Of a DNA stretch of 61,369 nucleotides, positions 2,822-61,369 are shown in pieces. Source of the DNA: a virus (lineage: Duplodnaviria; Caudoviricetes); the IMG/VR virus record IMGVR_UViG_3300045912_000939, positions 1-61,369 of that record. One strand, written 5' to 3'. The translations under genes were made by a program, and so were the position numbers. Every line of letters begins with the position of its first letter. The first letter of the stretch is position 1. The notes below the pieces were generated by a model. The model was not told the origin of the DNA, made no database searches, and saw only the letters and a program-made list of their open reading frames with translations.

Positions 2822-2839
2822 CCCCACCTCGAAGACGCC

Positions 2840-3767
2840 ATGCGCGCGGACGTGCTGCGCGACCTCGCGAGCGAAGCGCTCAAGATCAAGCACCGCCCAC
2901 TTCTGGATCGACGAGCGCGATACCCCTACCGCCTCGGACGGGTCGCTCGAGCTGCGCACCGACCCTGGCGGCATAGCGCTACAGCCGGGCGAGCGCTTCT
3001 TGCTCAACACGCCAGGCGACCTCACCTTGTTCGCGAAGTTCCATCCAGACGGGGTAGACAGCAGTCACAGCTTGCCGTTTCCAGCAGTCTTGCGGCGCGT
3101 CAGCGACCCGAGCTTGCCATACGGCTACACATTCCGGTACGTGCCCGCAGAGCAGCACGAATATGCCGTCAAGGCGACCGCCCTACCCGGCCTGTGCCTC
3201 TTTACCCGCAAGCCGCTGCCGAGACTGCTCGTGGCCAAAGCCTACAAGCTCGAGGGCCGCTGCAAGTGGCACGGGCTCGACATCTCCATCGAGAACGGCA
3301 AAGGGAGCGTCAGGCGCGGCGTAGATCCCGACGGGCACGCCTGGTCGACGCGCATGCTGTACCCTTACGGTTACCTCAGAAACACCCAGGGGACCGACGG
3401 CGACCACCTCGACTGCTACGTCGGCCCCGACGAGGACGCCGCCAAGGTCTACATCGTGCATCAAGTCGATCCCACCACCGGCGGGTTCGACGAGGACAAG
3501 GTGATGCTCGGCTTCCCCAGCGCCGACGCCGCCAAGCGCGCCTATCTGGCGCACTACGACACGCCCAAGTTCTTCGGCGGCATGACCGAGATGCACGCTG
3601 CGGAGTTCGCCCAGCTCGTCAAAAGCGGTAAACTGACGGGCAAGGTCGTCATGGGCGAGCCGCGCGCTCGAGCTGGCAAGGCGGAGCTGAAGCGCCTGCT
3701 CGAGGTCGCCAAGCGCCAGCGCACCGTTACGGGTGGGCTGAGCTACTACGTCAAGAGGTCACAATGA
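2840..3767 (+). CDS. InPase (inorganic pyrophosphatase-like) domain head-associated protein; apparent frameshift near 2890
   Basis: ISIENGKGSVRRG...YGYLRNTQGTDGDHLDCYVGP...FDEDKVMLGF in the 2562..3767 frame; the only plausible start (ATG 2840) is in another frame. Confidence 0.7.
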
Positions 3768-4108
3768 TCGACGAACCGCGCTTCAGAGGAATCGTACAGC
3801 TCTTGCAGCGAGACCCCGGCAGCTACCGGGCGTTCGGCCCTTACTGGTGGCCACTCAAGCAGATGTTGCGGCGCCACTACGCTACCGAGACGCTCTACCT
3901 CCTCGGCAACCATGACGAGCCCGTCACCCGCGGCGCGCTCGAGCGCCACTACCCGGACGAAGAGGCGCTGTTCGTTGCGGCCGTCAACCACTACCGTGAG
4001 AAGGCCGTACTTGGCGAGCGATACGACGGCAGCTCGAGCCTGCCCGATGGCGCGGACTACGCGCTGTTCGATCCGGATGGCGGCGTGGCGAATGCCGTCG
4101 GCAGCTAG
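3764..4108 (+). CDS. Hypothetical phage protein (YRAFGPYWWPLK)
   Basis: ATGA overlap with upstream gene, GAGG RBS. Confidence 0.7.
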   Translation: MIDEPRFRGIVQLLQRDPGSYRAFGPYWWPLKQMLRRHYATETLYLLGNHDEPVTRGALERHYPDEEALFVAAVNHYREKAVLGERYDGSSSLPDGADYALFDPDGGVANAVGS

Positions 4109-8015: not shown

Positions 8016-8801
8016 ATGGCCAATGGTGAGACGCAAGCTCCACTCTTTACTCCAGTCACGCCCGTACCTATGACTGTCAAACTGGCCGAGGTCGAGCCGT
8101 GGAAGAGCACGGCTCGCAACCTCGTCAAGAAGTCGGTGGCGCTGCTCGGCTTTACGAGCACGCCACTGCTGCAGGAGACCGGAGCCACGCCGTATAAATA
8201 TCGCGTCGTCGCGGGTAGGCGCCGCCTCGACGCGGCAGCCGCCGCCGGGCTCGAGTGCGTGACGGCACTCGTGATCGGCGCCGACGTTACCGAGGCCGAT
8301 GTGCGCGCGCTCGGCGCCATGTCGAACCTGGCTCGCAGCTCGAGCCCCGTCGACGAGGCGTTCGACTTGCACAGGCTGGTCGAGCTTGGCCACACACCCG
8401 CCGACCTCGCCAAGCTCTTCGGCATCTCCAAAGCAGTGATCGAGAAGCGCCTCAAGCTGGCAAGCCTTCCCGATGCGCTGCTCGAGGCGGTCAGGCGCGG
8501 CGACATGGCGCCAGGCGTCGCGGCCGACGTCGCCAATCTGACGCTCGAACAGCAGGAGCAGCTGATTCAGCGCCTTGAGACGCAAGACCGGATCACCGGC
8601 GCCGACGTAAAGGCCGTTCGACTGGCGCAGAAGGAAGCAGCCGTCAAGGCGCTGCCCGAGTCGCTCTTTGGACCCATCCCCGAACTCACGCCCAGCGAGC
8701 GCTTCAAGCACGCGGCACGCCAGGCCCTCGCCGAGGGCGTGACAACCCAGGAACTCGCGAGATTGCTCGAGGAGGCTACGAAAAGCGAGGTGACGACGTG
8801 A
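8016..8801 (+). CDS. ParB/Srx-like protein with HTH
   Basis: YRVVAGRRRLDAA, SNLARSSSPVDEA, LAKLFGISKAVIEKRL. Confidence 0.8.
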   Translation: MANGETQAPLFTPVTPVPMTVKLAEVEPWKSTARNLVKKSVALLGFTSTPLLQETGATPYKYRVVAGRRRLDAAAAAGLECVTALVIGADVTEADVRALGAMSNLARSSSPVDEAFDLHRLVELGHTPADLAKLFGISKAVIEKRLKLASLPDALLEAVRRGDMAPGVAADVANLTLEQQEQLIQRLETQDRITGADVKAVRLAQKEAAVKALPESLFGPIPELTPSERFKHAARQALAEGVTTQELARLLEEATKSEVTT

Positions 8802-10449: not shown

Positions 10450-11670
10450 GTGCTTGTGACGCGCAGAGTCGAGTTCAAGGTGTACCCCAACGCCGCCCAA
10501 CGTGAGCAGCTTGAGGTGTGGACGGTGTTGCACGCTCGGCTCTACAACGCCTGTTTGGAGCAGCGCATCACGCACTATCGTCAGCACAAGGGCTCGGTAA
10601 GCTACTACGACCAGCAGAACGAGTTGCCCGCCCTTAAAGCCGAGTTTCCCGAGTACACCCCCTTGGGCTCGCACGCCCTCCAAGAGACGGTGAGGCGAGT
10701 GGACAGGGCGTTTCAGGCGTTCTTCCGGCGCGTCAAAGCTGGCCAAACGCCGGGATTCCCCCGCTTCAAATCGGCGCGGCGCTTTAAGGGCTTCACCTAC
10801 CCCGACCCCGCCGGGTGGAAGTTCGCCCTTGGACAGAACGGCAAGCACGGGGCGCTCTCTATCTCCAACCTCGGCACCCTCAAACTGAGAGGCAAGCCGC
10901 GTCAGTGGGGCAAGCCGACCACCTTGACGCTGACCCGTAAGAGCACGGGGGAGTGGTTTGCGTCCATCACGGTGCGGTGCATCCCCAAGCGCGAAGCAGG
11001 ACCGCACGCGGTCGGCGTGGACTTGGGGTGCGAGACGGCTATCAGCCTTTCGGACGGCGGCACTATCGAGAACCCGCGCCACCTCAAGGAGTCGCTGCAA
11101 AAGCTCAAGGTGCTGCAAAGGAGGATGGCGAAGCGCAAGCGGGGCGGCGCTAACCGAGAGAAGGCGCGTCTTGCCGTTGCCAAGCTGTACGCCAAGGTAG
11201 CGAATCAACGCAAACACTTTCAGCACTTTGAGACGGCGAAGCTCGTCCAGACCTACGGGCTCATCGCTACCGAAACGCTTCAAGTCAAGAACATGACCGC
11301 CAAGGGCGGTGCGTACAAAAAGGGCCTTAACCGCTCCATTCTGGATGTGGGCATGGCGACCATTAAGCAGATGCTCAGCTACAAAGTCGAAGAAACTGGT
11401 GGCTATGGGCGACTGGTAGAGGTCCCGACCCGCAAGGTTAAACCCTCACAGACGTGTCCCGCGTGTGGTCATCAACATAAGAAGCTCCTTTCGGAGCGCA
11501 CACACGTCTGTGAGCAGTGCGGATACACCGCGCCGCGTGACGTGGCGGCTGCCCAAGTCATGCTTGCTTGGGCGCTTAACGAGTTGGGAACCGACTCGCT
11601 GGCGAGTCCCTGTAGTTTGGGGATGACGACCCAGGAAACTACCCCCATAGCCGTCAGGCTTGGGGCGTAG
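10450..11670 (+). CDS. tnpB: RNA-guided endonuclease TnpB
   Basis: RuvC residues VGVDLG, IATETL, RDVAAA; zinc finger CPAC...CEQC. Confidence 0.95.
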   Translation: MLVTRRVEFKVYPNAAQREQLEVWTVLHARLYNACLEQRITHYRQHKGSVSYYDQQNELPALKAEFPEYTPLGSHALQETVRRVDRAFQAFFRRVKAGQTPGFPRFKSARRFKGFTYPDPAGWKFALGQNGKHGALSISNLGTLKLRGKPRQWGKPTTLTLTRKSTGEWFASITVRCIPKREAGPHAVGVDLGCETAISLSDGGTIENPRHLKESLQKLKVLQRRMAKRKRGGANREKARLAVAKLYAKVANQRKHFQHFETAKLVQTYGLIATETLQVKNMTAKGGAYKKGLNRSILDVGMATIKQMLSYKVEETGGYGRLVEVPTRKVKPSQTCPACGHQHKKLLSERTHVCEQCGYTAPRDVAAAQVMLAWALNELGTDSLASPCSLGMTTQETTPIAVRLGA

Positions 11671-14183: not shown

Positions 14184-14629
14184 TACGCCGCGGTCGCCTG
14201 GCTCGAGCGGCCAGCAGCTGCCGGGCGGATGTTCAGCGCCATCAGCTGCACATTCTTGTTGACGCGCTGGTTCAAGGGGATGGTGACGCTGTCGCCGACC
14301 GGCTCGCAGCCGCTCGCGATCATCAGCGTGCCGGTGTCGCGGTCGATGAATTCGATGTCGAACGGCTCGACGTCGCCCAGGGTCGCGCCCAGCTTGTTGA
14401 CCACCGCGTTGCCGGCGCGGCGGCGCAGAATCAAGCTGGTGGCCGTCGCGCGGTACGAGCCGCGGTTGTGGTTGATCTCGACGGGATTGAACTCGCCCAG
14501 CTCGTAGACGTAGTCGGCGCCGGTGTCGCGCGTGAACTGAAGGTTTTGCAGCCGCCCGATCTTTTGCCCGGCGAACTTGACGTCGCCGTGGTTGGCGTGG
14601 AGCGTCTCCGCGTTGCGAATCGTTGCCAT
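14183..14629 (-). CDS. Tail tube protein
   Basis: 148 aa after sheath; IGRLQNL, VYELGEFNPVEI. Confidence 0.85.
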   Translation of the reverse strand: MATIRNAETLHANHGDVKFAGQKIGRLQNLQFTRDTGADYVYELGEFNPVEINHNRGSYRATATSLILRRRAGNAVVNKLGATLGDVEPFDIEFIDRDTGTLMIASGCEPVGDSVTIPLNQRVNKNVQLMALNIRPAAAGRSSQATAA

Positions 14630-14640
14630 CTACGTCTCCT

Positions 14641-16368
14641 TTACGCCGCCAACTGGATGGTGGTCGGCACGAGTAGCGCGGTGTGCCGGATGAAACCGAT
14701 GCGCCCGACGGCGTTCGCCTCGAAGTCGATGGCAACCAACTCCACACCGTCGAATACCGCCAGGATCGCGCCGACGCCGCTCAGCACCCCTTCGGGGTTC
14801 TGGCCGCCACGCACTTCCTCGCGCAGCGCGCGCTCGGTGGCGTTCAGGATCGACTCGACGGTGGAGGCGTCGCCCACCCCGCCCACGAACGGCTTGGTGT
14901 AACGGCGGATCTTGCGCACCAGATAGTGGCGCAAGTCCACCCCGAAGCGCAAGCGGTGCATGATGTTGCTGTCGCGCTGCCAGCTCGTCACGTCGTCGGC
15001 GATGCGGAAGACGCCGTCCTCGTCGTCGTAGAAGACGGCCAGCGCGCCGGCTTTGATGAAGGCGCCGATCTCCTGGCGGTCGTACTCGAAGACGGTGCCT
15101 GCCACCCGCAGCGTCTTGTAGGTGAGGTCTATCTCCGGCCGCACGCCGCACGCCATCCCCAGGATCATGGCCGCCGTCTCGTTGGGGGAGAGGTCTTCGA
15201 TGCGGCCGGTGCGGAGGTTGCGGCGCCTCAGCGGCGTGCCGACCACGGTGGCGAGCTCGGACTGCAGCTCGCGCGCCAGCGCCTCTGCCGCCGTTTGCTG
15301 CGCCGCCTTGTTGGCCTCGAGCGCAGGGCCGCAGTAGACGCGGCGCTCGTTTTGCTCGACCGGATGCGACATGAGCGTGCAATGTTGCTCGGCCATGGCG
15401 TGTACCGCCGGGTCGGTGGACTCCACGTAGACCGCTTGCACGTCACGGCTCTGCAGCGCCTGGAAGGCCGCTTCGTAATCCGCGAGCACGACCGGGTCGC
15501 CCTCGCTCCCGCCCGAGAAATACAGCCAACCTTCGTCCGTGCCCGTCGCGGCCGACGCGACCGGCTCGCCGCGGGCGATCTCGCTCCCCTCGAGCCAGGC
15601 GACTTGCGCTGCCGCGCCGAGGTCGAGCACCGCCTTGTTGCTCGTCACGGTTACCGTGCCGTCGGGCAACAGCGAGGGATCGAAGGTGTGATGGCTATGC
15701 AGGACGGTGCCCGCCCAGGCGCTCGTGCCGTTCAGGAACGCCGCTAGGTCGGCGAAGGTGCGAATACCGCCCTCGCCGAGCGCAAGCGCGTAGTTCTCGC
15801 TCGCGTTCTCGCCAGTGAGGATCAGCGTCTTCTGCCCGTTGGTCGTGGTCACCTCGACGGATGGGCTGACGCCACCACCCAGATACTCGACCTCCAAGGC
15901 CGGGCCGAGCGGCGGGCTCTCCTCGAACAGGTCGGCGGCGGCGTCCTCGAGCTTGAGCACCGCCGCCCCACCCGACACGCTGTCGCGGCGAGCGCGAACG
16001 CCGTTCCCGGCGATGCCCGCGTGCGTCGGCAGCAGCGTGAGGAGCAGGTCGCCAAGGTCGAGCGTGGCGCGCGTGGCGTTGTTGATGCGGTAGTAATCGC
16101 ACTCCCCGAGGCCCGGCACGTCCGGACTCGGGTTCACCGCGAAATCCAACGCCTTGAGGCCCTTGCCACCCTTGAGGATGCGCGCGTAGTTCTCCGGCGT
16201 GAGCCGCACGAACTCGCGCGGCGGCCCACCGAGCGAGGTGGCGATGACCGCAGCGCGCTTGAGCAGGGGAGGGCGCGGTTGGTTGAAGCCGTCCGTGCGG
16301 GTGACGGCCACCACGCCGGGGATCACCATCTGCCGGCCAGAAACGACGATTCCGACATCTTCGGGCAT
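14641..16368 (-). CDS. Contractile tail sheath protein
   Basis: 575 aa; IPGV N-terminus, LTYKTL, FRIADDVTSW. Confidence 0.9.
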   Translation of the reverse strand: MPEDVGIVVSGRQMVIPGVVAVTRTDGFNQPRPPLLKRAAVIATSLGGPPREFVRLTPENYARILKGGKGLKALDFAVNPSPDVPGLGECDYYRINNATRATLDLGDLLLTLLPTHAGIAGNGVRARRDSVSGGAAVLKLEDAAADLFEESPPLGPALEVEYLGGGVSPSVEVTTTNGQKTLILTGENASENYALALGEGGIRTFADLAAFLNGTSAWAGTVLHSHHTFDPSLLPDGTVTVTSNKAVLDLGAAAQVAWLEGSEIARGEPVASAATGTDEGWLYFSGGSEGDPVVLADYEAAFQALQSRDVQAVYVESTDPAVHAMAEQHCTLMSHPVEQNERRVYCGPALEANKAAQQTAAEALARELQSELATVVGTPLRRRNLRTGRIEDLSPNETAAMILGMACGVRPEIDLTYKTLRVAGTVFEYDRQEIGAFIKAGALAVFYDDEDGVFRIADDVTSWQRDSNIMHRLRFGVDLRHYLVRKIRRYTKPFVGGVGDASTVESILNATERALREEVRGGQNPEGVLSGVGAILAVFDGVELVAIDFEANAVGRIGFIRHTALLVPTTIQLAA

Positions 16369-16369
16369 G

Positions 16370-16588
16370 CTACACCTTCACTTTCTTCAGGCCGTCGAGC
16401 TTAGTCTGCCACTCCTTCGCCGTGAACCGCGCGGCGGCGCCATGCCGCACCTGCAAAGCGCGCACCAGCGTAGCCGACACGCCCTCGCGCGCGGCCCACT
16501 CCGCCAGCGGCAAGCGACGCTCGGCCTTCGCCTTGGCCACACTCTCGCCTTCGGGATCGGGCGATGCCGGGGACTTGTTCTTGGCCAT
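16370..16588 (-). CDS. Small pre-sheath protein
   Basis: AGGAGG RBS, late motif upstream. Confidence 0.7.
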   Translation of the reverse strand: MAKNKSPASPDPEGESVAKAKAERRLPLAEWAAREGVSATLVRALQVRHGAAARFTAKEWQTKLDGLKKVKV

Positions 16589-16604
16589 CGTGCCTCCTGC
16601 CCCA

Positions 16605-16627
16605 AGCCTGCTGGCGGCGTGGGGTCA
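16605..16627 (-). promoter_or_regulatory. Late-promoter motif
   Basis: TGACCC-N11-CAGGCT; TGA is also the upstream stop. Confidence 0.75.
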
Positions 16628-17494
16628 GAGGGTGACGCGCCAGGCGAAGGTCACGTTACCCAAGTCGAACGGGTGCGTGCGCTCGATATACGCGTCCACG
16701 ATGCCGTCCAGCGTGATCTCGCGCGTGTAGTAAAGCGCGTCGCCCAGGTCGGCCATGTTATCGCGTGCGCTCATGCCGAGCTCGTCCCAGCCCAACTCGC
16801 CGAACAGCTCGAGGTCGCCTAAGAAGCGCATCATGAAGTAGTCGCCAAGCTCGTCGCGCTGCGCGGGCGTCCGTGCGAGGAGGCGCGCCTCGGCGATGCC
16901 GCGGAAGGTCGCGGTGCGCGCGCTGCCGTCGCCGTCGTCCTCGCTGCCGAGGTGGATGTCGGCGAGCACGTAGCGCTCGGCGATCTGCAACAGCGGCGGC
17001 CCCTGACGGTGAAGCGCTTCGTCCTTGAGAACGAACACCCCTCTCGGGGCAGCGTGGTAGCGCGCGCGCTGATAGACGAGATCCTTGACCTGCAGCGCCA
17101 TGTAGGCATGGAGCGACCGCTGCGGGGTGACCTTGACCATCACACTCTCGCCATAGCTCGAGCCGTGCTTCGGCCACAGGTAGTAGTCCCAAGCGTGCCC
17201 GTCGATCAGGTTGGCCGCGTCGTCGAAGCGATCCCCGAACGCCTGAAGATCCCAGATCTCGCCGCGCTCGAGCGTGCCTTCCAGGTTACGCGCGAAACGG
17301 TACGACGGCTCGCCAGCACGCGGTGGGCCATCCCAGACCAGATGCGCGCTCTCGTCCTCCGGCCCACCGACCGGCGTGCCCTCCGGCACCCTGAGCACCC
17401 GGACGTGCGGGTAGCCCTTCGGCATCCCGAACGAGATGCGAACGGCCCCGCCCTCGGCTCGAGCGGTGGTGGTGATGTGGGAGAGCGTGGGCAT
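16625..17494 (-). CDS. Probable neck/tail-terminator protein
   Basis: Position upstream of sheath; phage-like codon usage. Confidence 0.6.
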   Translation of the reverse strand: MPTLSHITTTARAEGGAVRISFGMPKGYPHVRVLRVPEGTPVGGPEDESAHLVWDGPPRAGEPSYRFARNLEGTLERGEIWDLQAFGDRFDDAANLIDGHAWDYYLWPKHGSSYGESVMVKVTPQRSLHAYMALQVKDLVYQRARYHAAPRGVFVLKDEALHRQGPPLLQIAERYVLADIHLGSEDDGDGSARTATFRGIAEARLLARTPAQRDELGDYFMMRFLGDLELFGELGWDELGMSARDNMADLGDALYYTREITLDGIVDAYIERTHPFDLGNVTFAWRVTL

Positions 17495-50979: not shown

Positions 50980-51831
50980 TTAGTTGAGGTCCTTCTCGCG
51001 CCCCGAGGCGCCGGCGGAGAGGCTTGGCGGGCTGAGGATGGTCGTGAGGCGGGCGTTGGCGTCGCGCAGCAGCTCACGCAGGGGTGTGGGCCAGTCGGCA
51101 GGCTCGTCGACGAGGGCTTCGCGGGCGCTGCTCACCTGAACGGAAAGGATGCTGCGGGCGGCGCGCTCGAGCGTCCCATAGGTCTCGGTCGGTTCCCAGA
51201 TGCCGCGTTGCGGTGTGAACGGCTTGGGCAGTTTGGTGTCTATCGTTCCCCTGGCGTCCCCGCCCTGAGCGGAGCCGAAGGGGTCGCGGGGCGTCTCTTC
51301 GACGGCGACGGCTTGAGCGGGGAGAGTATGGGGGGAGCGGTTGCGCCACTTGCCGTCGCTACCCTGGAGCTTGTCGAACTGGCTAATTTCGCCAGTTGTT
51401 TCGAGCGCGATGCGCGTGGAGCGGACGGTGGCGTGATTGGCGCCCACCTCGTCGGCGATGCGCCTGTCCGCCCAGTGCGTGTAGTGGAGCAGGTAGTAGG
51501 CGATGACGTTTTGCAGCTCTTCGCGGCTGAGCTGGCGACGGCGGACGTTGTTCATCACCAGGTAGCGAACCTCTTCGTTTTCGTCCGCGAACGAGCGCTC
51601 GATGCAGGGGAGTGCGTCGAGCTCGAGCGCCCTCCCGGCACGCCAGCGTTGATGGCCGTCGACGACCGTCGGTGTGCCGGTGCGCGTGGAGATGATGAGC
51701 GGTTGTAAGATCCCGCGTTCCTCGACGTCGGCAAGGAACTGCAGCCACTCGTCGCCGTCGATGGGGCGGAACAGCGCACGCTGCTGAGGGTGCTCTTGCA
51801 GTTCGGCGGGGGGAAGCCAGACGATGCGCAC
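50980..51831 (-). CDS. ParB N-terminal domain + HTH protein
   Basis: GILQPLII, VVDGHQRWRA, NNVRRRQL, DRRIADEVG; GGAGGT RBS before GTG. Confidence 0.85.
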   Translation of the reverse strand: MRIVWLPPAELQEHPQQRALFRPIDGDEWLQFLADVEERGILQPLIISTRTGTPTVVDGHQRWRAGRALELDALPCIERSFADENEEVRYLVMNNVRRRQLSREELQNVIAYYLLHYTHWADRRIADEVGANHATVRSTRIALETTGEISQFDKLQGSDGKWRNRSPHTLPAQAVAVEETPRDPFGSAQGGDARGTIDTKLPKPFTPQRGIWEPTETYGTLERAARSILSVQVSSAREALVDEPADWPTPLRELLRDANARLTTILSPPSLSAGASGREKDLN

Positions 51832-51942
51832 CGTTACCTCCAAGCGGGGAGCTTGCTCCAAGATGGTGCCAACATTGCTCTAGATTGTATCAGACTGTCC
51901 CTCCGGATGGTGTAAAGCCCTGCACACCTTGCGTGCTGAACG

Positions 51943-52911: not shown

Positions 52912-53343
52912 TTACCGCCCTTCTACAAAGAGGGCAATCTGCTCCGCACCTCTGCCGAGCGCTTGAGTGTCCGGGTAGTAGTACGCTCGTGGGTTTTCGC
53001 GGTAAAGGCGCCACCGTTCCATCAGCTTCTTCGGTTGCATATGCTCTGGCAATACCAGATACTGCCAACCCTTCCCATAAGGGGGCTCGAGCTGTTCTCG
53101 CGGCAGCGCGTCGAGTCGCCGCTTGAGCAGCGATTGTGCTGCTTGCAACAACTCGTCTCGGTCGTACCTGCGCCCAACAGCCGCCTCGAAATACTGCGCT
53201 AGCTCCTCACGCAGCGTCCACCTGGCGGGCTCCCAATCGTAGGGCTGCTCTTTTGCCATGATGTACAGCAGGTGCAGCACTCTGGACTCGTGCCCACCCG
53301 ACCGCTCTCCCAAAAACACTTCTAGGTGTCGCTCAAGGGTCAT
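52912..53343 (-). CDS. Hypothetical protein
   Basis: GGGAG RBS, operon position. Confidence 0.6.
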   Translation of the reverse strand: MTLERHLEVFLGERSGGHESRVLHLLYIMAKEQPYDWEPARWTLREELAQYFEAAVGRRYDRDELLQAAQSLLKRRLDALPREQLEPPYGKGWQYLVLPEHMQPKKLMERWRLYRENPRAYYYPDTQALGRGAEQIALFVEGR

Positions 53344-53557
53344 GGCGTTGGCACTCCCACGCAAGCTCGAGCCTCCGCTTGCCCTCGTCGACGTCTCCGA
53401 ACGCCCAGGCGGCAAGCCCGCCGAGCACGAAGCGGTTGAAGTTTTCGGTGAACTTGCCGTTGCCGAGAAACGCGCGCCTTGGCAGCTTATCCTCGAGGGC
53501 CAGCCGAACCAGGGCCTGGTAGCGCAGCGGGACACGGGGTATAGCGCTGTTTTGCAT
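53333..53557 (-). CDS. Hypothetical protein
   Basis: GGAGG RBS after dnaB. Confidence 0.5.
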   Translation of the reverse strand: MQNSAIPRVPLRYQALVRLALEDKLPRRAFLGNGKFTENFNRFVLGGLAAWAFGDVDEGKRRLELAWECQRHDP

Positions 53558-53567
53558 CGCACCTCCC

Positions 53568-54905
53568 TTAAACCCCGACAGCAGAGGCCATCGACCGGAA
53601 GCGCGTGTGCGCATCCAGGTATACGAGCTCCACCGTCCCGGTAGGACCATTGCGCTGCTTGCCGACGATGATCTCCGCGACGTTCGGGTGCTTGCTCTCC
53701 CTATGCTCTTTCGCCGCGTAGTAGTCGTCACGATAGATGAACATCACCACGTCGCTGTCCTGCTCGAGGCTGCCGCTTTCCCTCAGGTCTGACAGCACCG
53801 GGCGCTTATTCGTGCGCTTCTCCACATCTCGCGAAAGCTGCGCGAGCGCCAGAACGGGTACTTCGAGCTCGCGAGCGATGCCCTTGAGTCCGCGCGAAAT
53901 CGCGCCGATCTCCTGCTCCCGATTGGATATGCGCGTGCCCGAGGCGTTCATGAGTTGCAGGTAATCCACGACGATCAACGACAGCGGCGTGCGGCTGGCA
54001 ATCCGCCGGCAGCGGCTGCGGCACTCCATGATGCTGAGCTCGCTGCTGTCGTCGATGATGATGCTCGAGCCGGCAAGCTCCTCGAGCACGCGGGTCGCCT
54101 TGTTGAGGTCGTTGGCGCCCAGCTGGCCGTTCCGTATGCGCTGCATATCGATCTTGCCACGCATCGACAGCAAACGTAAAGCGAGCTGCACGCGTGACAT
54201 TTCGAGACTGTAGAGCAGCACGCCCTTTTTGAGCTCCAGTGCAACGTACTCCGCCACGGAAAGTGCCCATGCGGTTTTGCCCATGCTCGGCCGGGCTGCG
54301 AGTAGATTGAGGCTGCCAGGCTGCAGGCCACTAAGCAGGCGGTCTAAATCCGGGAAGCCGGTCGGGAGCCCGGAGAGGCCGCCGCTTTTCATCGCGTCGA
54401 GGTAGGCAAGTACCTCAGCGGTGATCGTGTGCATGTCGTGATAGGTTTGCCCGGTGTGGGTGTTGGCAACCCGGTAGATCTCCTGCTGGCAGCTGTCGAG
54501 CAGCTCCTCGAGCTCCTCGGCCTGGTCGAAGGCTTTCTGCATGATGCCACCGGCCGCATGGATGAGGTTCCGGAGGATGCTTTTCTCCTTCACGACGCGG
54601 GCGTACGACTCGGTGTACGCGGCCGTGGGTGCCTCGTCGGCGATACCGACCAGCACTAGGGCATCCTGTTCGTCACGGAGGTCGCCGCGGCGGCGCATGA
54701 TCTCGGTCACATGCACCAAATCGATGGGGTCGTTTCGGTCGGCGACCGCGAGGATCGCGCGGTAAATCTTGCGGTGGAACTCCTTGTAGAAGTCTTCAGG
54801 CTGGAGGACATCCCGGATTGCCTCGAGCTGCTCGTTGTCGATCATGATTCCGCCCAGGACGCCGATCTCGGCCTCAAGGTTGGCGGGGGGTTCCCGGCTC
54901 GACAT
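53568..54905 (-). CDS. dnaB: Replicative DNA helicase
   Basis: AARPSMGKT, SLEMS, VDYLQLM, DLRESGSLEQDSD, KQRNGPTG. Confidence 0.97.
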   Translation of the reverse strand: MSSREPPANLEAEIGVLGGIMIDNEQLEAIRDVLQPEDFYKEFHRKIYRAILAVADRNDPIDLVHVTEIMRRRGDLRDEQDALVLVGIADEAPTAAYTESYARVVKEKSILRNLIHAAGGIMQKAFDQAEELEELLDSCQQEIYRVANTHTGQTYHDMHTITAEVLAYLDAMKSGGLSGLPTGFPDLDRLLSGLQPGSLNLLAARPSMGKTAWALSVAEYVALELKKGVLLYSLEMSRVQLALRLLSMRGKIDMQRIRNGQLGANDLNKATRVLEELAGSSIIIDDSSELSIMECRSRCRRIASRTPLSLIVVDYLQLMNASGTRISNREQEIGAISRGLKGIARELEVPVLALAQLSRDVEKRTNKRPVLSDLRESGSLEQDSDVVMFIYRDDYYAAKEHRESKHPNVAEIIVGKQRNGPTGTVELVYLDAHTRFRSMASAVGV

Positions 54906-55987
54906 CAGTTCACCGCCCTTGCCCGCTGGACGCCCCCGTGGGAAGGGCTCAAGCCCGAAGGGACAGGCCTGCAGGCTTCAGGTGGGACGGGTGGGTGGTC
55001 GTCCTCAAACACCACCAGCGTGCCGACAGGTTTGCGGAGCACGTCGGCAATCACATGCTCGCTCATGTCGGGCAGTTGCACGCACATGCCGGGCTCGAGC
55101 CCGTCGCTGGGAGGTGCCGCAGCGTGGGGTTGTTTATGGGGGAGCAAACTTTTGTCGAGCGCGATTTCGCCCTGGAGGATGAGCAAGAAGGTCTTGTTGG
55201 TGCTGTGGACGGCGTCGCGCTTGGCTTGCTGGTGCGCCGCCAAAATTTCCGTCTCGCTCCATAGTGAAGCGAGCCGCTCGAGCTCCTCAAGCTCCACACG
55301 GTGGCCTCCAAGGTGCTTGAGGATGGCGGCGCCGCTTCGGCTTTGCCCGAGCGCGAGCCGCCGCGCAGTACGTTCTTCGCTGGATAGGTGCGGCTTCCTA
55401 TTGATGGCGGGCCGTGAGGTTGCCCTCGATGATGGCGCGCTTGTCCCGCAAGAATCAAGCCCCTCCTCCTTCGTCGCTTCGATAGCGCTACTGGAGTGAG
55501 GGGGGGTAGGGGGGGAGGAGTCTTTAGCTTTATCTTTAACTTCCTCTTTACCCAACCTAGCTCCGTCGTTACTCCGTCCTTGGTCCGGCGTTAGTCCGGC
55601 GTTAGTCCGGAGTACAGATAATGCTGTGCCTGACGTGTCTTGCTTCGTTGGAGGCGGAATCTTGGATTCCGCTTCCTTGTCCTTGCGCAGCCCCACCTGG
55701 TGAGTCTCAAATTTCGGGAAGTGGAGGTACGCCCGACCTTCGACGGAGTAAAGACGGACCAACTCCGCCTCATGGAGGGCCTCGAGTGCGGCGATGATCT
55801 GCTCGGGAGTGAAGCCTAGATAGGTGAACACCTGCCCGGCGAGGTAGCGGGGATCCGCCTTGACCCGGCCTTCCCGATCGGCGTGCGGGATCATCATCAG
55901 GAACATCAGGCGCGTCTCGTGATCGGGAAGCTCAGCGAACTGTTCGGATTCGCTGATGCTTTTGCTGATGAACCGGCCTCTAGCCAT
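54905..55987 (-). CDS. Phage replication initiator
   Basis: MARGRFISKS..ADREGR..YLHFPKFETHQ; internal iterons; upstream of dnaB. Confidence 0.8.
   Translation of the reverse strand: MARGRFISKSISESEQFAELPDHETRLMFLMMIPHADREGRVKADPRYLAGQVFTYLGFTPEQIIAALEALHEAELVRLYSVEGRAYLHFPKFETHQVGLRKDKEAESKIPPPTKQDTSGTALSVLRTNAGLTPDQGRSNDGARLGKEEVKDKAKDSSPPTPPHSSSAIEATKEEGLDSCGTSAPSSRATSRPAINRKPHLSSEERTARRLALGQSRSGAAILKHLGGHRVELEELERLASLWSETEILAAHQQAKRDAVHSTNKTFLLILQGEIALDKSLLPHKQPHAAAPPSDGLEPGMCVQLPDMSEHVIADVLRKPVGTLVVFEDDHPPVPPEACRPVPSGLSPSHGGVQRARAVN
55521..55612. repeat. Putative origin: ~5 degenerate 11-bp iterons (TTAGTCCGGCG) plus pyrimidine/AT-rich tract
   Basis: ttactccgtcc ttggtccggcg ttagtccggcg ttagtccggag next to tctttagctttatctttaac. 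Confidence 0.7.
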
Positions 55988-56156
55988 AACGACACACCTC
56001 CGCGATTTCGCGCCGTTCCTTGTAGCGCGCGACAAGGAAGTTGTGGATCTCGCGCAGCTCGGCGTAGCACGCTTGCAACTCACTTGCTGTGAGGTCGGAT
56101 CTAGCAAGCGCCTTACCCAAGCTCTGCGCTCGTTGCTCCAGGCTTTGCCGGGTCAT
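55980..56156 (-). CDS. Small hypothetical protein
   Basis: GGAGG RBS, overlaps. Confidence 0.5.
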   Translation of the reverse strand: MTRQSLEQRAQSLGKALARSDLTASELQACYAELREIHNFLVARYKERREIAEVCRYG

Positions 56157-57244
56157 TGTCTTCCTCCATTGCCATCGGCAAAAGGCGAAAAGAGTTGCCC
56201 GCTGAGTGCAGCGACGGTGCGTGGGCTGAGCCATAGGCACTCGATGCGCGAACCGGAACGCCCGGTTGAGAGCTCTCGTTGTGTCTCGACCCGCGTCCAG
56301 CCGTACCGCTCGAGGAAGCGCTCGTAAAGCGTCGAGCGATACCCGCTGAGGACGACATAACCCTCAAGCCCTCGCGCGCAATGGCACAGCAGCCGGTGCT
56401 GCGCCTCGCTCAGCACGTGGGCGTAGGCTGCCCGCCCATGGCCGGTGCTCAGTGTCGCCGCCAGGTACGGAGGATCGAGGTAGAAGAGCGTGTTCGGGGA
56501 GTCGTAGCGCTTGAGGATGGCGTAGGCATCGTCGTGCTCGAGCTGTACCCCGCGCAGTCTCCCCGCGACCTCGAACAGGTGCTCGAGCCTGCCGGGTTCG
56601 CTCCACAAGACACAGGAGGGTTTCCAGGTCACGCGCTTCTCGTAGCGCCAGAGGTTCTTGGCGTCCGTGCGCCCCATGCCGACACCGATGGCTTGCCACG
56701 AGCGCACGAAGAAGCGCCTTGCCGCCTCGAGCGGCGGAAGTTCGGCAAGATCGGCGAAGCGAGCTGCCACGTACTCCTCTCGGGACCAGGGTGTCAGCTC
56801 GAGCTGGCGAACGAGCTCGTCAGGCTGTTCCCGGAGGACGCGAAAGAAGTTCACCACCTCGCCACTGATGTCGTTGTAGGTCTCCAGGGCGCTGCGAGGC
56901 TTCTGCAACAAGACGGCCGCCCCGCCGCCGAAGGGTTCCACATAGTGCTCGTGCGGCGGGAAGTGGCGAATGATCCAGTCCGCCACGAGCCATTTTCCGC
57001 CGTGATACCTGAGGGCCGGGCGCCGCGGCTTTGCCTGGTGCGCGGTAGGAAGCTGAATCACCGCTGCGCGCGCGTGGGCGTCGCGCTCGGTGCGTAATTC
57101 ATATGGCGCGCGAGGCGCCCAGGTGCCTCGGATCCCGATGCGGCGCAGGAGCCGAACCACGTGCATGGCCTCTTGAGGCGTGTCGGTACGGCAGACGATG
57201 GGAAAGGCGCCAGGGCGACCGCGTTTACTGGGGCGGTGGATCAT
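56153..57244 (-). CDS. Dam-like (D12) adenine methyltransferase
   Basis: RYHGGK, YVEPFGGG, YLDPPY. Confidence 0.9.
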   Translation of the reverse strand: MIHRPSKRGRPGAFPIVCRTDTPQEAMHVVRLLRRIGIRGTWAPRAPYELRTERDAHARAAVIQLPTAHQAKPRRPALRYHGGKWLVADWIIRHFPPHEHYVEPFGGGAAVLLQKPRSALETYNDISGEVVNFFRVLREQPDELVRQLELTPWSREEYVAARFADLAELPPLEAARRFFVRSWQAIGVGMGRTDAKNLWRYEKRVTWKPSCVLWSEPGRLEHLFEVAGRLRGVQLEHDDAYAILKRYDSPNTLFYLDPPYLAATLSTGHGRAAYAHVLSEAQHRLLCHCARGLEGYVVLSGYRSTLYERFLERYGWTRVETQRELSTGRSGSRIECLWLSPRTVAALSGQLFSPFADGNGGRQ

Positions 57245-58005
57245 CGACCGAACGCCTCCTCGGCAGTCGGCGCGTCTCGCTCGTCGATGCGTCCGCCCTG
57301 CAGTCCACGCGCCGGCGATGCACGACCAGGTTGCCGGCTTGCCAGCGCCGCCTGTCGCAATCGCGCAAGCTCCCGTTTGGTGAGTTTCGTCAGTTCGCGG
57401 ACGTCCCGACCGCAAACCTGCCGGACGAAGGGGTGGAGGTCTTGCGGTCGGATGCCGTTCGCTACCATCTCCTTGAAGAACGCGCTGGCGTCGTCGGGTG
57501 TCACCATCTCGCCGTCGTCTGCATCCCGGGGCGGGCAGGGTTCGTTTGCCGCTGCCACGGGGGCCGTGGGCTCGAGTGCCAGCTCCTCGCGCCGCTTGCC
57601 GCCCATGAAGCGCACCAGTGTGACGTACTCGATCTCGCCGTCGCTCGGCTCGCGCACGTGAGGCGGATCGGAAGGCTTAGCGCCCCGCGAGTACTTGATG
57701 GTTTCAGGGTAGGTGTAGTGCTTGGTGGTGGTGGCTGGCACCTCGCGTCGTTTCCACACGCGTCCCCGGCAATAAACGCAAGTCTCGCCGCTCTCGTTGG
57801 TAAACAGGCGCGCGCCCAGGATGCTCCAGTCGAAGTCGTATTCGTTGTCGAAGGGGAACTTAAACCCGCGCTCCGGTATGGGAACGTCGCAGTACCAGCC
57901 GCGCCTGCCGTAGCGCTTGACGGTCTCCAAAAGGCTGTCGGCGGTGCAGGGCACCGAGACGCTCAAGCCCAGGTCGGTGACCATGTTGACGTATAAGGTT
58001 TCCAT
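57241..58005 (-). CDS. ddrB: DdrB-family ssDNA-binding/annealing protein with C-terminal extension
   Basis: TDLG..YGRRGW..FPFDNEYDFDWSILGAR..IKYSRGAKPSDPPHVRE..DGEIEYVTL..GGKR matches Deinococcus DdrB as I recall it. Confidence 0.88.
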   Translation of the reverse strand: METLYVNMVTDLGLSVSVPCTADSLLETVKRYGRRGWYCDVPIPERGFKFPFDNEYDFDWSILGARLFTNESGETCVYCRGRVWKRREVPATTTKHYTYPETIKYSRGAKPSDPPHVREPSDGEIEYVTLVRFMGGKRREELALEPTAPVAAANEPCPPRDADDGEMVTPDDASAFFKEMVANGIRPQDLHPFVRQVCGRDVRELTKLTKRELARLRQAALASRQPGRASPARGLQGGRIDERDAPTAEEAFGR

Positions 58006-58361
58006 TAGGCGTCCTCGTCAGGCTCCAGGCCACGCCAACGCAGGTTGCCGGACGCGACGCTGTGCCCGAGCGCGTAACCAATAACGCCAGCGAGCAGAAT
58101 GAGGACGACGATGCTAGTAACCATGCGGGCCTCCGAATAGCCAGTCGCACACCGCGGCGATGGCGATGATCGCCAGGGATGGTGCCCAGAGAACGATGGC
58201 GGTCCAGAGCATGAGCTCGAGCATGCTCATGGCAAGCACCTTGCCGATCTTGGGAGCGCGTGCAACGGCCCTGTCCTGAGCGAAGCGAACGGAACACCAT
58301 CCACCTCGCGAGGGGTGGCTGGCCTGTCGCCAAGCGATGGGGTTTGCGGTATAGTCATGCT

Positions 58362-58449
58362 GGTCGTCCTTTCTCCCGGCACGCCCGCCTGTTGGAAGCG
58401 GATCGGGGCTGAGAATCCTGGTCGCTGCCGGCGGCCAGGGTTTTTCTTT
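58362..58449 (+). ncRNA. Putative antisense sRNA to early-left operon
   Basis: TCGCCA-N17-TATAGT (58327-58355), hairpin CCTGGTCGC..GCGGCCAGG + T-run (58417-58449); covers RBS of a minus-strand ORF. Confidence 0.5.
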
Positions 58450-58469
58450 CCGGGCATGAACCCGGCCCG

Positions 58470-58853
58470 CTAGTTCCCCGAAGGGAACGGTTGGGTAAAC
58501 GCGGCGCCGATAGCGTCGTGACGCTCGGCGTCGTGGCGGTGCATCACGCGGCGCTTCCACGCGACCACGGAGTCCGGATCGATCAACCACGGGGACTTGG
58601 GTCTATCGGGGTTCTGGCGCACGGCATGAATCTCGCCGCTGGCGATGAGCGCACGCACCTGGTCGGCGGTGAAGCGGGGAGAGATGAACGCAGCGGCTTG
58701 TTCGGTGTCCCAGAAGAGGGTGCCGTGAGGCATCCCGCCGCGCAGCTCCTCGCGCACTTGCTCGCGAACGATGGACGCCACTTCGGCTTTTAGGTGCTCT
58801 AGGAGCGCCCCCAGGAGCTGCTCGAGCGGTGCCTTGCCGGCGTACTCAGCCAT
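58470..58853 (-). CDS. Excisionase-like HTH protein
   Basis: DTEQAAAFI..VRALIASGEIHAVR..WLID. Confidence 0.75.
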   Translation of the reverse strand: MAEYAGKAPLEQLLGALLEHLKAEVASIVREQVREELRGGMPHGTLFWDTEQAAAFISPRFTADQVRALIASGEIHAVRQNPDRPKSPWLIDPDSVVAWKRRVMHRHDAERHDAIGAAFTQPFPSGN

Positions 58854-59073
58854 GGTCGTCCCCCTCCCGCGAGGTAGAATTGAGACTTAAAGAGTCATAA
58901 TCTAGGTCAAGGTAATGGCATAGAACTTTGATGGTCGCCACGCGAGTCGAGCGTGCGTCGTTGAGAAAGTCGCCAATCGTTCGCTTCGACAAGCCCGTCA
59001 CGCCCGCCAGTTTTCGTGCGGAGAGGTTGCGCTTGCGCATCGCGTCCCTCACTGCGTCTCGAATATCGACCAT
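58846..59073 (-). CDS. Cro-like HTH regulator
   Basis: LSARKLAGVTGLSKRTIGDFL; divergent from CI. Confidence 0.85.
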   Translation of the reverse strand: MVDIRDAVRDAMRKRNLSARKLAGVTGLSKRTIGDFLNDARSTRVATIKVLCHYLDLDYDSLSLNSTSREGDDHG

Positions 59074-59078
59074 GCCTT

Positions 59079-59107
59079 AGTGTAAAGGTGGGACGATATT
59101 GTGTCAA
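59079..59107 (-). promoter_or_regulatory. Early promoter TTGACA-N17-TACACT, leaderless Cro
   Basis: Consensus boxes, ATG 5 nt after -10. Confidence 0.8.
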
Positions 59108-59204
59108 GGATTAGAGCAAAATATTAAGATGTCCACACCCAAGGCTTGTTCGCATTTCGGGTCAACATTGCTCCGCTTTGGGTCTATATGCTACCATCCG
59201 AGCA

Positions 59205-59993
59205 ATGACCGTTGGCGAGGCATCAATGCGAGGGTCGGTAGGAGCTGCACCTATGACCAAATCCAAAGCCGAGGAGCAGCGCGCCAAGAAGCTAGGCAAA
59301 TACGTGCAAGAGCGGCGCATGCAACTGGGCCTCAAACGCCCCGAGTTCATCGCTGAGATGGAGCGCCTCGGCGAAAGCATCACGGCCGATCACCTCGCGA
59401 AGCTCGAAGGAGGCCATCGCTACCTGCAAAACGCCGCCGTCAGCACGCGCGAGGCCATCCGCACCATTCTCAAGATCGATCCGGAAACCTGGTACAAGGA
59501 CACAGGGCTCTACGTCCCGACCGAAAGCAACGGAAGTAAGCCGGGCTTCCTCGAGCGGGTCGGCTACGAAGCGGACTTTAGCCTGGAGCTGCCAGCTTAC
59601 GGGTCTCTGGCCGCAGGCATCCACGGCTTCGAACATCAAGAGCACCCTGAGAGATTCATGCGCTTCGACCGCCGCGAGTTGCCTCAGGGCGTCAATCTGC
59701 GCAAGCTCTACGTCGTCAGGGTCAACGGCGACAGCATGTACCAGGAAAACATGCGTCGCCCCATCCCCGACGGCGCCTGGTTGGTGGTCGAAGCAGGCGC
59801 GGTACCGGCCGAGGGCAGCATCGTCGTGGCCTACATCCCTGAAAAGGAGATCGGTGTCGTCAAGGAGTACGCTAGAGTCGGCAACGACGTCGTGCTACGG
59901 AGCTTCAAGCGTGGCGGCCCCATGTTCTGGAGCAGCGAGTTCCCGGACATGCGCGTTCAGGGTGTCGTTCGCGCCGTGACCTACAAGGTGTAG
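59205..59993 (+). CDS. CI/LexA-like repressor (HTH + S24 peptidase)
   Basis: GSLAAG cleavage site, VNGDSM, VVKE; TACCAT-N7-ATG. Confidence 0.9.
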   Translation: MTVGEASMRGSVGAAPMTKSKAEEQRAKKLGKYVQERRMQLGLKRPEFIAEMERLGESITADHLAKLEGGHRYLQNAAVSTREAIRTILKIDPETWYKDTGLYVPTESNGSKPGFLERVGYEADFSLELPAYGSLAAGIHGFEHQEHPERFMRFDRRELPQGVNLRKLYVVRVNGDSMYQENMRRPIPDGAWLVVEAGAVPAEGSIVVAYIPEKEIGVVKEYARVGNDVVLRSFKRGGPMFWSSEFPDMRVQGVVRAVTYKV

Positions 59994-59995
59994 CA

Positions 59996-61369
59996 ATGCC
60001 TCGAGGACGGCGCACGCGCGGCCGGGCAGCAGGCGAGGGATCTATTCGCCGCCGCACCATCACGCGAAAAGACGGCAGCACCTACAAGCGTTACAGTGCC
60101 GTCATCACCATGGGCTGGATCGATGGCAAACAGAAGCAACGCGAGGGCCCTTTGCGCGCCACCGAAAAGGAGGCTCGCGACGACCTCAAGCAGATGCTCG
60201 AGGAGCGCGACGAGAGTGGCCTCAGCAATTATGCCACCATGACCCTCAGCCAGTATCTCGATTACTGGCTCGAGCAGCGCCAGCCGTACCTGGCCGAACG
60301 AAGCCACAGGAACTACCGGCTCGACAGCGAAAAGTACATCAAGCCTCGCATCGGCCACGTGCAAATGCGAGACCTGTCCCCAGTCGTGATTCAAGCGTGG
60401 CAGACCAAGCTCCTTAAGGACAAGACCCCGCACGTCGCCAAGCGCACGCGCGCTGCGCTCAGCGCGGCCCTCAGGCAAGCGGTGCATTGGCAGATCCTCA
60501 AGTACAACCTCATGGATGCAGTTCCGCCCGTCAAGCTCCCCGAGAAGAACCGCCGCCGCTGGACGTTGGCTGAGGTACGGCGCTTCTTGAAGGTCGCCGA
60601 GCCACACCCCCTGTACCCCCTCTTTTTGCTGACCCTGAACACCGGGTTGCGGATAGGGGAGGTTCGCGGACTCCGTTGGGGGGACATCGACGGCAACGTG
60701 ATGCGAGTCCGTCACCAGATTCAGGGTTACAGCGCAACCCCACGTTTCCTGGCACTGAAAACCAAAGGGAGCCGCCGCAACCTCACGTTACCTGCCGACG
60801 TTCTCTTCGCCCTTGCCCAACACCGCAAGCGGCAAGACGAGCGGCGGGCCTTAGCCGGCACGTTGTGGAGGGACTACGATTTGGTGTTCTGCACCGGCAT
60901 CGGCACGCCCCTTGGCCCGGACAAAATCTACGATGCTCTGGTCGAACTCATTCACCAGACCGTACGCGACGATCTCAACCAGATCATCAAGGACATAGCC
61001 GGCAAATCAAGCTTGACCTTACGGGATCTCGAGCGAACCTTCAAAGGCGTGTCCTCGCCAAAAGAGGAGACGGCTCGCAGTGCCGTGCATGCCCTCATCG
61101 ACATGGCGGCGGAGAAGCACGAGATCGACGCCGTGCGCCTTCATCAGCGTGTGGAGAACGCCGGCATTCGACGTATCCGCTTTCACGATTTGCGGCACAC
61201 AAACGCCAGCTTGCTGATCCGCATGACGGACGCCAAGACGGTATCCAAGCGCTTGGGCCACGCTGACTCCAGCATCACGCATCGAATCTACGTGCATGAG
61301 TTCGAAGATCAACTGGAAAAGTTCGCGCCTTCCATGGATGATCTCTTGGGCGGCAATGATGATCCCTAA
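59996..61369 (+). CDS. int: Tyrosine integrase
   Basis: GEGSI arm, TGLRIGE, HDLRHT, LGH, IYVH. Confidence 0.95.
   Translation: MPRGRRTRGRAAGEGSIRRRTITRKDGSTYKRYSAVITMGWIDGKQKQREGPLRATEKEARDDLKQMLEERDESGLSNYATMTLSQYLDYWLEQRQPYLAERSHRNYRLDSEKYIKPRIGHVQMRDLSPVVIQAWQTKLLKDKTPHVAKRTRAALSAALRQAVHWQILKYNLMDAVPPVKLPEKNRRRWTLAEVRRFLKVAEPHPLYPLFLLTLNTGLRIGEVRGLRWGDIDGNVMRVRHQIQGYSATPRFLALKTKGSRRNLTLPADVLFALAQHRKRQDERRALAGTLWRDYDLVFCTGIGTPLGPDKIYDALVELIHQTVRDDLNQIIKDIAGKSSLTLRDLERTFKGVSSPKEETARSAVHALIDMAAEKHEIDAVRLHQRVENAGIRRIRFHDLRHTNASLLIRMTDAKTVSKRLGHADSSITHRIYVHEFEDQLEKFAPSMDDLLGGNDDP

Follow-up and report, generated by a model that had tools for sequence, protein, structure and literature searches.

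Why would a temperate phage carry a gene for DdrB, which parts of the earlier literature regard as a repair protein specific to Deinococcus and unique in its fold (sections of PMC2879517 and PMC6300522), and what would this protein do for the phage? The question is raised by a DNA stretch of 61,369 nucleotides (hereafter, the window) that represents an entire IMG/VR record (IMGVR_UViG_3300045912_000939), classed as a provirus and ~76% complete according to CheckV. The window is a myovirus-like provirus, and the carrier of its ddrB gene (positions 57241..58005, minus strand) is a prophage of a hot-spring Deinococcus-like bacterium. The genomic context of the gene, together with the fold and the domain architecture predicted for its product, indicates that this DdrB is probably the phage's own protein for handling single-stranded DNA (ssDNA), in other words a single-strand annealing protein (SSAP) and/or an ssDNA-binding protein (SSB). 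In the limited collection of papers that was searched (main texts, supplements excluded), no paper on a phage-borne DdrB of the Deinococcus type was found; the relevant part of an Antarctic metagenome survey counts matches to the DdrB hidden Markov model (HMM) without their context (PMC10140301).

A full-length DdrB with an additional C-terminal domain

The open reading frame (ORF) at 57241..58005 (minus strand, stop codon included) encodes a full-length DdrB of 254 aa (P0001). Its GC content by codon position (0.65/0.50/0.79) follows a pattern that is absent from the overlapping antisense ORF (0.78/0.54/0.65), and the ddrB frame is therefore taken as the coding one. An initial annotation of this DNA had reported motif matches to DdrB over ~140 aa, and the search with the Pfam DdrB family HMM (PF12747) bears this out: the match covers residues 6-135 of P0001 and profile positions 2-131 of 132 (E=3.6e-38), with a score of 130.8 bits against a gathering cut-off of 25. 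A six-frame search with the same model scored it at 132.5 bits and found no second DdrB match in the whole record. Among proteins of known structure, the sequence matched the chromosomal DdrB chains of D. radiodurans/D. geothermalis (4EXW with E=7.6e-42, 4HQB/4NOE with E=9.3e-39), the identity to the best 4hqb/4noe chains being 46-48%.

A full-length AlphaFold2 model of P0001, built from a 23-sequence alignment, reached a mean per-residue confidence (pLDDT) of 86, with block means of 89-97 over residues 1-140. The DdrB core domain (residues 1-145, 57571..58005, minus strand) is delimited by this confidence profile and by a Foldseek match to 4hqb_A (E=1.8e-18, target-normalised TM-score 0.93, root-mean-square deviation (rmsd) 1.4 Å over 143 columns, 48% identity). 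Foldseek returned 15 matches at E<=0.001, and 11 of 11 among the matches listed are DdrB chains. Thus, the window protein and the chromosomal DdrBs have both family and fold in common. The core is also strongly conserved, with 24 invariant columns among 23 sequences of the family.

Nine residues of D. radiodurans DdrB are described, in the relevant part of PMC3834827, as lowering ssDNA binding when replaced by alanine (R64, W66, R83, R85, K94, K102, K108, R132 and K135). We placed them on P0001 by hand from the alignment and verified the residue letters. Seven of the nine are kept or conservatively replaced in the window protein, five being identical (R64, R85, K102, K108 and K135 correspond to R66, R87, K104, K110 and K137) and two changed to similar residues (W66 to F68, R83 to K85); the remaining two are considered below.

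The core is followed by an acidic Pro/Ala-rich linker (residues 146-166, 57508..57570, minus strand; isoelectric point (pI) 4.05) of low confidence, with a pLDDT below 50 at residues 150-154 and a block mean of 47 for residues 151-160. Beyond the linker, the extra helical C-terminal domain (CTD) that had been proposed from the sequence does appear in the model: four helices (170-182, 187-198, 202-207 and 210-222) are predicted with pLDDT values of 90-96, the block means for residues 161-220 being 78-96. A model of the CTD by itself, from a 3-sequence alignment, had a mean pLDDT of 73, with the helices at 83-89. These models and the alignment to relatives define a basic (pI 10.25) four-helix domain, which we call type A, at residues 167-224 (57334..57507, minus strand). 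The protein ends in a disordered tail (residues 225-254, 57244..57333, minus strand; pLDDT 44-64) with the terminal residues AEEAFGR. Canonical chromosomal DdrBs, in contrast, have no such four-helix domain and carry instead a disordered acidic tail that ends in EETPF, EEVPF or similar. This tail has been likened to the SSB C-terminus (in a section of PMC2879517), and the tail of P0001 has no acidic ...PF tip of this kind.

Relatives of the window protein and the variety of their C-termini

No match to P0001 was found by tblastn among 50,697 GenBank phage records, and PHROGs v4 has no family for it. A word-based search retrieved 23 proteins, with a similar length and C-terminus in only two of them, P0002 and P0003, whereas an exhaustive phmmer search of 1.84 billion representatives gave 122 clusters (defined at 50% identity) at E<=1e-3, of which 82 also passed E<=1e-10. 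In the pooled set of 144 proteins, which is an uneven sample mixing 90%- and 50%-identity clusters, the DdrB domain was present in 141 and near-complete in 117. At least 70 residues follow the domain in 51 of these 117 proteins, fewer than 20 in 48 and an intermediate number in 9; an acidic ...PF end occurs in 9 of the 117. When 62 C-terminal extensions of at least 55 aa were compared, they fell into 12 BLAST groups and 14 singletons. Profile-profile comparison (hhalign) of the 8 groups that have at least three members gave a probability of at most 1.8% in all 28 pairs, and there is thus no evidence of homology among the CTD types. As a separate observation, an ...AA end (for example AGAA, KAAA or REAA) is shared by ~20 of the 141 proteins that have a DdrB domain, for the most part long or divergent ones; such ends could be a degron-like or a partner-binding tip.

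The type A CTD of the window protein aligns with the C-termini of P0002, P0003 and P0024. At the level of BLAST (E<=1e-4) it was detected in P0002 (52-55% identity), in the long-form DdrB P0024, in the 81-aa protein P0126 and in P0123 (223 aa). In the last of these, the N-terminal domain that precedes it is not a DdrB domain but one that has a CxxC motif, and for which no Pfam or PHROG family was found. The type A CTD therefore behaves as a portable module. In the ESM Atlas, the clusters nearest to P0123 consist of hypothetical proteins of viruses (0.91-0.92); we take this as no more than a lead.

Position of ddrB in the early leftward operon

The gene lies in a leftward operon with the order cro-like, xis-like, two small hydrophobic (membrane) ORFs, ddrB, Dam methylase, Rep, DnaB. 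The first gene encodes a Cro-like HTH_3 protein (58846..59073, minus strand; Pfam HTH_3 E=6.9e-7). The assignment of the xis-like helix-turn-helix protein (58470..58853, minus strand) is weak (excisionase phrog_2907 E=1.2e-4; Pfam HTH_17 E=0.0076, below the cut-off). Then come two small hydrophobic ORFs read from the sequence, one of at least 38 aa (58114..58230, minus strand; GC content at third codon positions 0.82) that overlaps the start of the other, of 39 aa (58005..58124, minus strand; 0.72), the stop codon of which overlaps the ATG of ddrB (TAATG). As far as can be read from the sequence, these two overlapping ORFs directly upstream of ddrB may be translationally coupled to it. In the related metagenome contig L061, small membrane-like ORFs stand at the opposite flank of its ddrB gene and separate it from dam.

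Downstream, the ATG of the gene for a D12-class Dam DNA methyltransferase (56153..57244, minus strand; Pfam PF02086 E=6.3e-21, phrog_56 E=1.5e-61) overlaps the ddrB stop codon (ATGA; the junction reads CGATGATCC). It is followed by a replication initiator gene, rep (54905..56107, minus strand; phrog_2149, phrog_1408 and phrog_16167, E ~1e-14), whose true start is likely near 55987 because the family match begins at residue 41, and by a gene for a DnaB-like replicative helicase (53568..54905, minus strand; phrog_19 E=2.9e-111), the start of which overlaps the rep stop codon (TGATG). Hence, the placement of ddrB between xis and Rep/DnaB, as initially annotated, holds for the slot as such, with the qualification that two small ORFs intervene on the xis side and the Dam methylase on the Rep side. 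Phages usually keep their recombination protein in the slot where ddrB sits here.

A scan for consensus promoters in 53000-59400 gave a single minus-strand site, a sigma-70-like TTGACA-17-TACACT (59079..59107, minus strand; 10/12 consensus matches) before cro, in the cI/cro divergent region; a consensus scan of the same interval found no minus-strand terminator-like sites. On the other side of this region, a cI/LexA-like repressor with an S24 peptidase domain (59178..59993, plus strand; Pfam Peptidase_S24 E=8.9e-11) is followed by a tyrosine integrase gene that is open at the record end (59996..61369, plus strand; Pfam Phage_integrase, Phage_int_SAM_3 and Phage_int_M).

This arrangement bears on whether ddrB could be a lysogenic-conversion gene (moron), an extra copy of a repair gene that would raise the radiation or desiccation tolerance of the host. 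Such a role would agree with the contribution of chromosomal ddrB to radiation resistance (according to the relevant part of PMC6300522) and with the finding of two or more DdrB matches in 29 of 125 Deinococcaceae species genomes. However, the window gene is embedded in an early lytic operon, with start/stop overlaps on both sides, and lacks promoter-like and terminator-like sites of its own. Nor does it have a radiation/desiccation response motif (RDRM) nearby: with the pattern TTAYGTNNNNNACRTAA, adapted from sites in PMC1978522 and searched over the whole window with up to 2 mismatches, three matches were found (6151, 7520 and 32315, against 1.4 expected by chance), none of them within 20 kb of ddrB. 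The protein also lacks the acidic ...PF tail of its chromosomal counterparts. Overall, we regard a conversion role as improbable.

Absence of other annealing or SSB genes

The initial annotation had seen no Redβ/ERF/Sak or SSB gene elsewhere in the window. This held up in a six-frame search at E<=1 with the Pfam models SSB, RecT, ERF, Rad52_Rad22, SSAP_Sak and Enc34_ssDNA-bd, none of which matched the window, each of the six giving matches in known control genomes. Likewise, the PHROG and Pfam scans by which the window was annotated (49 of 58 candidate ORFs) produced no recombinase or exonuclease among their matches.

The same observations could be taken to mean that DdrB is purely a replicative SSB, which would coat the ssDNA of the lagging strand, and displaced ssDNA, at the Rep/DnaB replisome, annealing playing no role for the phage. 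The original characterisation of DdrB presented it as an alternative SSB (parts of PMC2879517 and PMC3739723), its gene is directly upstream of dam, rep and dnaB, and no SSB was found in the window, nor in four of the five other viral records with DdrB that were searched (see below). On the other hand, the solved homologue promotes annealing (in the account given in part of PMC6300522), the place beside a xis-like gene is the usual slot of an SSAP, and one viral record has both a DdrB homologue and an SSB with two OB-folds, so that DdrB and SSB are not simple substitutes there. T7 gp2.5 is both an SSB and an annealing protein. The two roles of the window DdrB are inseparable on present evidence and do not exclude each other; a purely replicative one appears to us rather unlikely.

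DdrB homologues in other viral contigs

A scan of IMG/VR with P0001 as a single protein gave no match, whereas an alignment-based scan found at least six loci with DdrB homologues, and phage genes were present near the homologue in six of six. DdrB therefore recurs in proviruses other than that of the window. The neighbours include a tyrosine integrase, a RepO-like protein and TerL (L002), DnaB and portal (L003), a serine integrase, primase and helicase (L004), an integrase with a weak match (L005), a serine integrase and a DnaC-like loader (L006), and a primosomal protein and a DnaB-like protein (L007). Whole-record searches for SSB, RecT, ERF and Rad52 covered five of the six viral records (all except that of L007): no SSB was found in four, no ERF in four, and neither RecT nor Rad52 in any of the five. 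The SSB of the L003 record (G002:C1:17345-18010, minus strand) shows two OB-fold matches in one frame, and the DdrB of that record is a short form.

A parallel comes from the metagenome contig L061, which has a P0002-like gene and the order ddrB, small ORFs, Dam methylase and the start of a rep-like gene, the ddrB-dam-rep proteins being ~50% identical to those of the window.

The recurrent placement is also relevant to a possible Gam-like function, in which DdrB would act as an end-protection or anti-nuclease factor and shield ssDNA tails from host nucleases or ssDNA-sensing defences. A predicted ssDNA-binding fold that would be expressed early is compatible with it, as are the anti-restriction-like genes of the same prophage (Ulx-like and DarB-like PHROG matches, 2562-4108). 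Nothing specific supports it, however. Any protein that binds ssDNA would confer protection as a side effect, and the placement with replication genes, conserved in 7 viral records, fits replication or recombination better. We consider that a dedicated protective role has little probability.

Some other features of these contigs were observed in passing. In the DnaB-like protein of L007 (885 aa, 14253-16910, plus strand), two non-contiguous stretches (residues 5-209 and ~650-875) match the helicase profile, a pattern suggestive of an insertion, for example of an intein. Giant ORFs stand just downstream of the DdrB homologue, or overlap it, in L003 (12241-18393, 2050 aa) and L005 (10243-17400, 2385 aa), both of them high-GC viral contigs.

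Chromosomal copies and phylogeny

A DdrB match was found in 121 of the 125 Deinococcaceae genomes. Our scan of species-representative genomes yielded 52 DdrB loci, most of which have recurrent clusters of neighbours in common. None of these clusters occurs around the window gene; its neighbours are phage genes, and it lies in a prophage early operon, whereas the chromosomal gene has a conserved locus. A review table lists 2-3 ddrB copies in three species, and phages are not discussed in that part of the review (PMC6300522). Some second chromosomal copies adjoin genes of phage type: phrog_13226 (E=9e-129) and a helicase occur near the one in L011, and a RecD/Dda-like helicase near the one in L056. 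The neighbours of ddrB in L010 are almost all without family matches, apart from a regulator-like gene.

A quick tree with sparse sampling had placed the window protein with L008, L009 and L010 inside the chromosomal clade. Two denser trees, a FastTree of 142 rows and a careful IQ-TREE analysis of 53 rows, both included P0003 and added representatives. In the IQ-TREE analysis, the window protein pairs with the long-form P0003 (support 100/100), the pair standing outside the 24-row canonical clade (93/98) and at the base, itself not resolved, of a group of 43 rows associated with Deinococcus (96/86). In the 142-row tree, the DdrBs of viral contigs are scattered across deep branches. A recent capture from the host, as read from the sparse tree, was dropped as an interpretation when the grouping was lost with denser sampling; the approximately unbiased (AU) test leaves it possible, since joining the window protein and P0003 to the canonical clade is not rejected (difference in log-likelihood 19.3, p=0.136). 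With this p value and an unrooted tree, the direction of transfer between phage and host is not fixed. The origin of ddrB, on which the phage gene bears according to the initial annotation, may thus be read either way.

The AU result, together with the grouping of the window protein with the chromosomal L008 and L009 in the sparse tree, could also be accommodated by a passenger copy of a host gene that has no selected function. Against such a passenger stand the intact ORF with its strongly conserved core, the conservation of the CTD in P0002 and its recurrence in P0024, P0123 and P0126, the ddrB-dam-rep order repeated in L061, and the pairing with P0003 in the denser tree. We consider this explanation very improbable.

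Proposed function of the phage DdrB

The initial annotation had inferred that DdrB acts as the annealing protein of the phage. Membership in the DdrB family, the CTD, the recombination/replication slot and the lack of any other annealing or SSB gene make this the best supported reading; the role itself is deduced from context, fold and architecture. In the mechanism that we propose, ddrB would be expressed early after induction, from the promoter on the cro side, along with the Dam methylase, the replication initiator and DnaB. By analogy with D. radiodurans DdrB, the core would form a homopentameric ring, bind ssDNA and pair complementary strands, activities that the phage may use in recombination-dependent replication, in end joining or circularisation, or in recombination with related genomes. 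As no SSB is present in the element, DdrB probably covers the SSB role as well. The linker and the basic four-helix CTD would substitute for the SSB-like acidic tail of chromosomal DdrB, and the CTD may link the protein to a partner, either phage-specific or from the host, in a manner comparable to the docking of the Redβ CTD on λ Exo and on SSB. A variable CTD could in this way tie a conserved DdrB core to element-specific partners.

Among known systems, λ Redβ (of the RecT/Redβ class of SSAPs) offers an analogous plan, in which an ssDNA-annealing core at the N-terminus is connected through a linker to a small CTD of helices, and is likewise encoded early beside excision and replication functions. 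According to their titles, the entries 8tfu and 6m9k show the Redβ CTD in complex with λ exonuclease or an SSB C-terminal peptide. The Redβ core, in contrast, has an unrelated fold, and the window protein has no match to the Pfam RecT model. When the CTD model was compared with 48,161 chains, ranks 1 and 2 were taken by the Redβ CTD: 8tfu_A (Z 6.2, rmsd 4.7 Å, 67 of 70 residues aligned, 21% identity) and 6m9k_D (Z 6.0, rmsd 3.6 Å, 63 residues aligned), the identity over both entries being 19-21%. These entries also had the highest target-normalised TM-scores (0.55-0.58) among the best 10 Foldseek rows. Weaker structural matches were the 80α Sak (8qe9, rank 8, Z 4.8) and NinB (rank 9), and in BFVD ERF proteins took ranks 22-23, which is not significant; nothing reached E<=0.001 when the CTD model was searched by Foldseek against PDB and BFVD. 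A co-fold of the CTD with residues 252-301 of SSB_DEIRA (Swiss-Prot), run without controls, scored 0.00 and speaks neither for nor against binding. The resemblance of the predicted CTD to that of Redβ is suggestive only, a lead that fits the architecture and not a result.

The Rad52-like phage SSAPs ERF and Sak are closer in another respect, as they are stand-alone proteins with no obligatory exonuclease partner and occupy the same genomic slot as the window ddrB; the window protein has no sequence match to the ERF, Sak or Rad52 models, and its structural echoes of these proteins are not significant. T7 gp2.5 and Enc34 ORF6 combine SSB and annealing functions in one phage protein with a C-terminal partner-binding element. 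The likeness is a functional analogy only; the window protein gave no match to the Enc34_ssDNA-bd model and has a predicted folded CTD and not an acidic tail. The 'DdrB' of phage P1, also considered, is an unrelated, ParB-like protein (in the relevant part of PMC5512222).

Several points weigh against an annealing role. With the record ~76% complete, its missing part could contain an SSAP or SSB, and the promoter and terminator calls are consensus matches alone. No partner exonuclease is found beside ddrB by Pfam and PHROGs among the neighbouring ORFs. Two of the nine DNA-binding residues are altered in P0001 (K94 to H96, R132 to M134), even if K95 adjoins H96 and an arginine, R132, stands two positions upstream of M134. 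The β6'-β7' hairpin has diverged as well (VDSRKLKL to TTTKHYTY); in D. radiodurans DdrB this hairpin contacts DNA and takes part in ring-ring contacts (relevant part of PMC3834827). Among the other DdrB-bearing viral records, that of L003 also has its SSB ~10 kb away, and another one, of 114 kb, has an ERF ~77 kb away. Finally, the likeness to the Redβ CTD is below significance in Foldseek (E 1.7-3.1), and Z values below 8, or below ~13 for helical bundles, can arise by chance.

Other features of the prophage

The structural genes of the window encode portal (cut at the left end), major head protein, tail sheath, baseplate proteins and a tape-measure-like protein. Further phage genes are those for an endolysin, the large terminase, an Ant anti-repressor, the S24-peptidase repressor and the tyrosine integrase (cut at the right end), besides two ParB-like genes (8016-8801, plus strand, and 50980-51861, minus strand, separate from each other), anti-restriction-like proteins and a transposase. 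The last (phrog_506, E=3e-93; 10450-11670, plus strand) stands between the ParB-like/Ant genes and the tail genes and is probably an insertion-sequence insertion. The region 2562-4108 (plus strand) has matches to large virion-associated proteins, including a DarB-like antirestriction protein, a minor head protein and an Ulx-like anti-restriction protein, and is likely an anti-defence cargo adjoining the portal gene.

The record breaks off inside a gene at either end (portal within 1-1773, integrase within 59996-61369), and the terminase is on the opposite strand ~45 kb from portal, which makes the provirus boundaries and the gene order odd; this layout may reflect trimming or rearrangement. 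The segment 55000-59400 of the window was found whole in two hot-spring/microbial-mat metagenome runs, from which it may derive, and a third hot-spring run, from another study, contained short low-depth contigs with parts of dam and ddrB.

Implications for the DdrB family

An intact, conserved ddrB in a prophage early operon, with relatives in at least six other viral contigs, means that the family belongs, at least in part, to mobile elements. This provides a concrete hypothesis for the origin of a hallmark radioresistance gene. More tentatively, the DdrB fold may represent an unrecognised phage annealing/SSB family with a ring-forming core and interchangeable C-terminal partner-binding modules, spread among temperate phages of Deinococcota and other phyla; chromosomal ddrB would then be a domesticated phage annealase that exchanged its CTD for an acidic tail resembling that of SSB and came under the phage-like IrrE/DdrO switch. 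We offer this broader scenario as a possibility short of probable.

At the level of phage biology, DdrB is a candidate for a further, new class among the annealing proteins of phages, next to those of the Rad52-like, Rad51-like and Gp2.5-like groups. Host-matched phage annealing proteins are the working part of recombineering systems, and such tools are limited in Deinococcus. If DdrB is indeed a phage annealing family, phage DdrBs would therefore be natural candidates for Deinococcus recombineering tools, and a Deinococcus-phage DdrB with its own putative partner-binding domain would be an obvious one.

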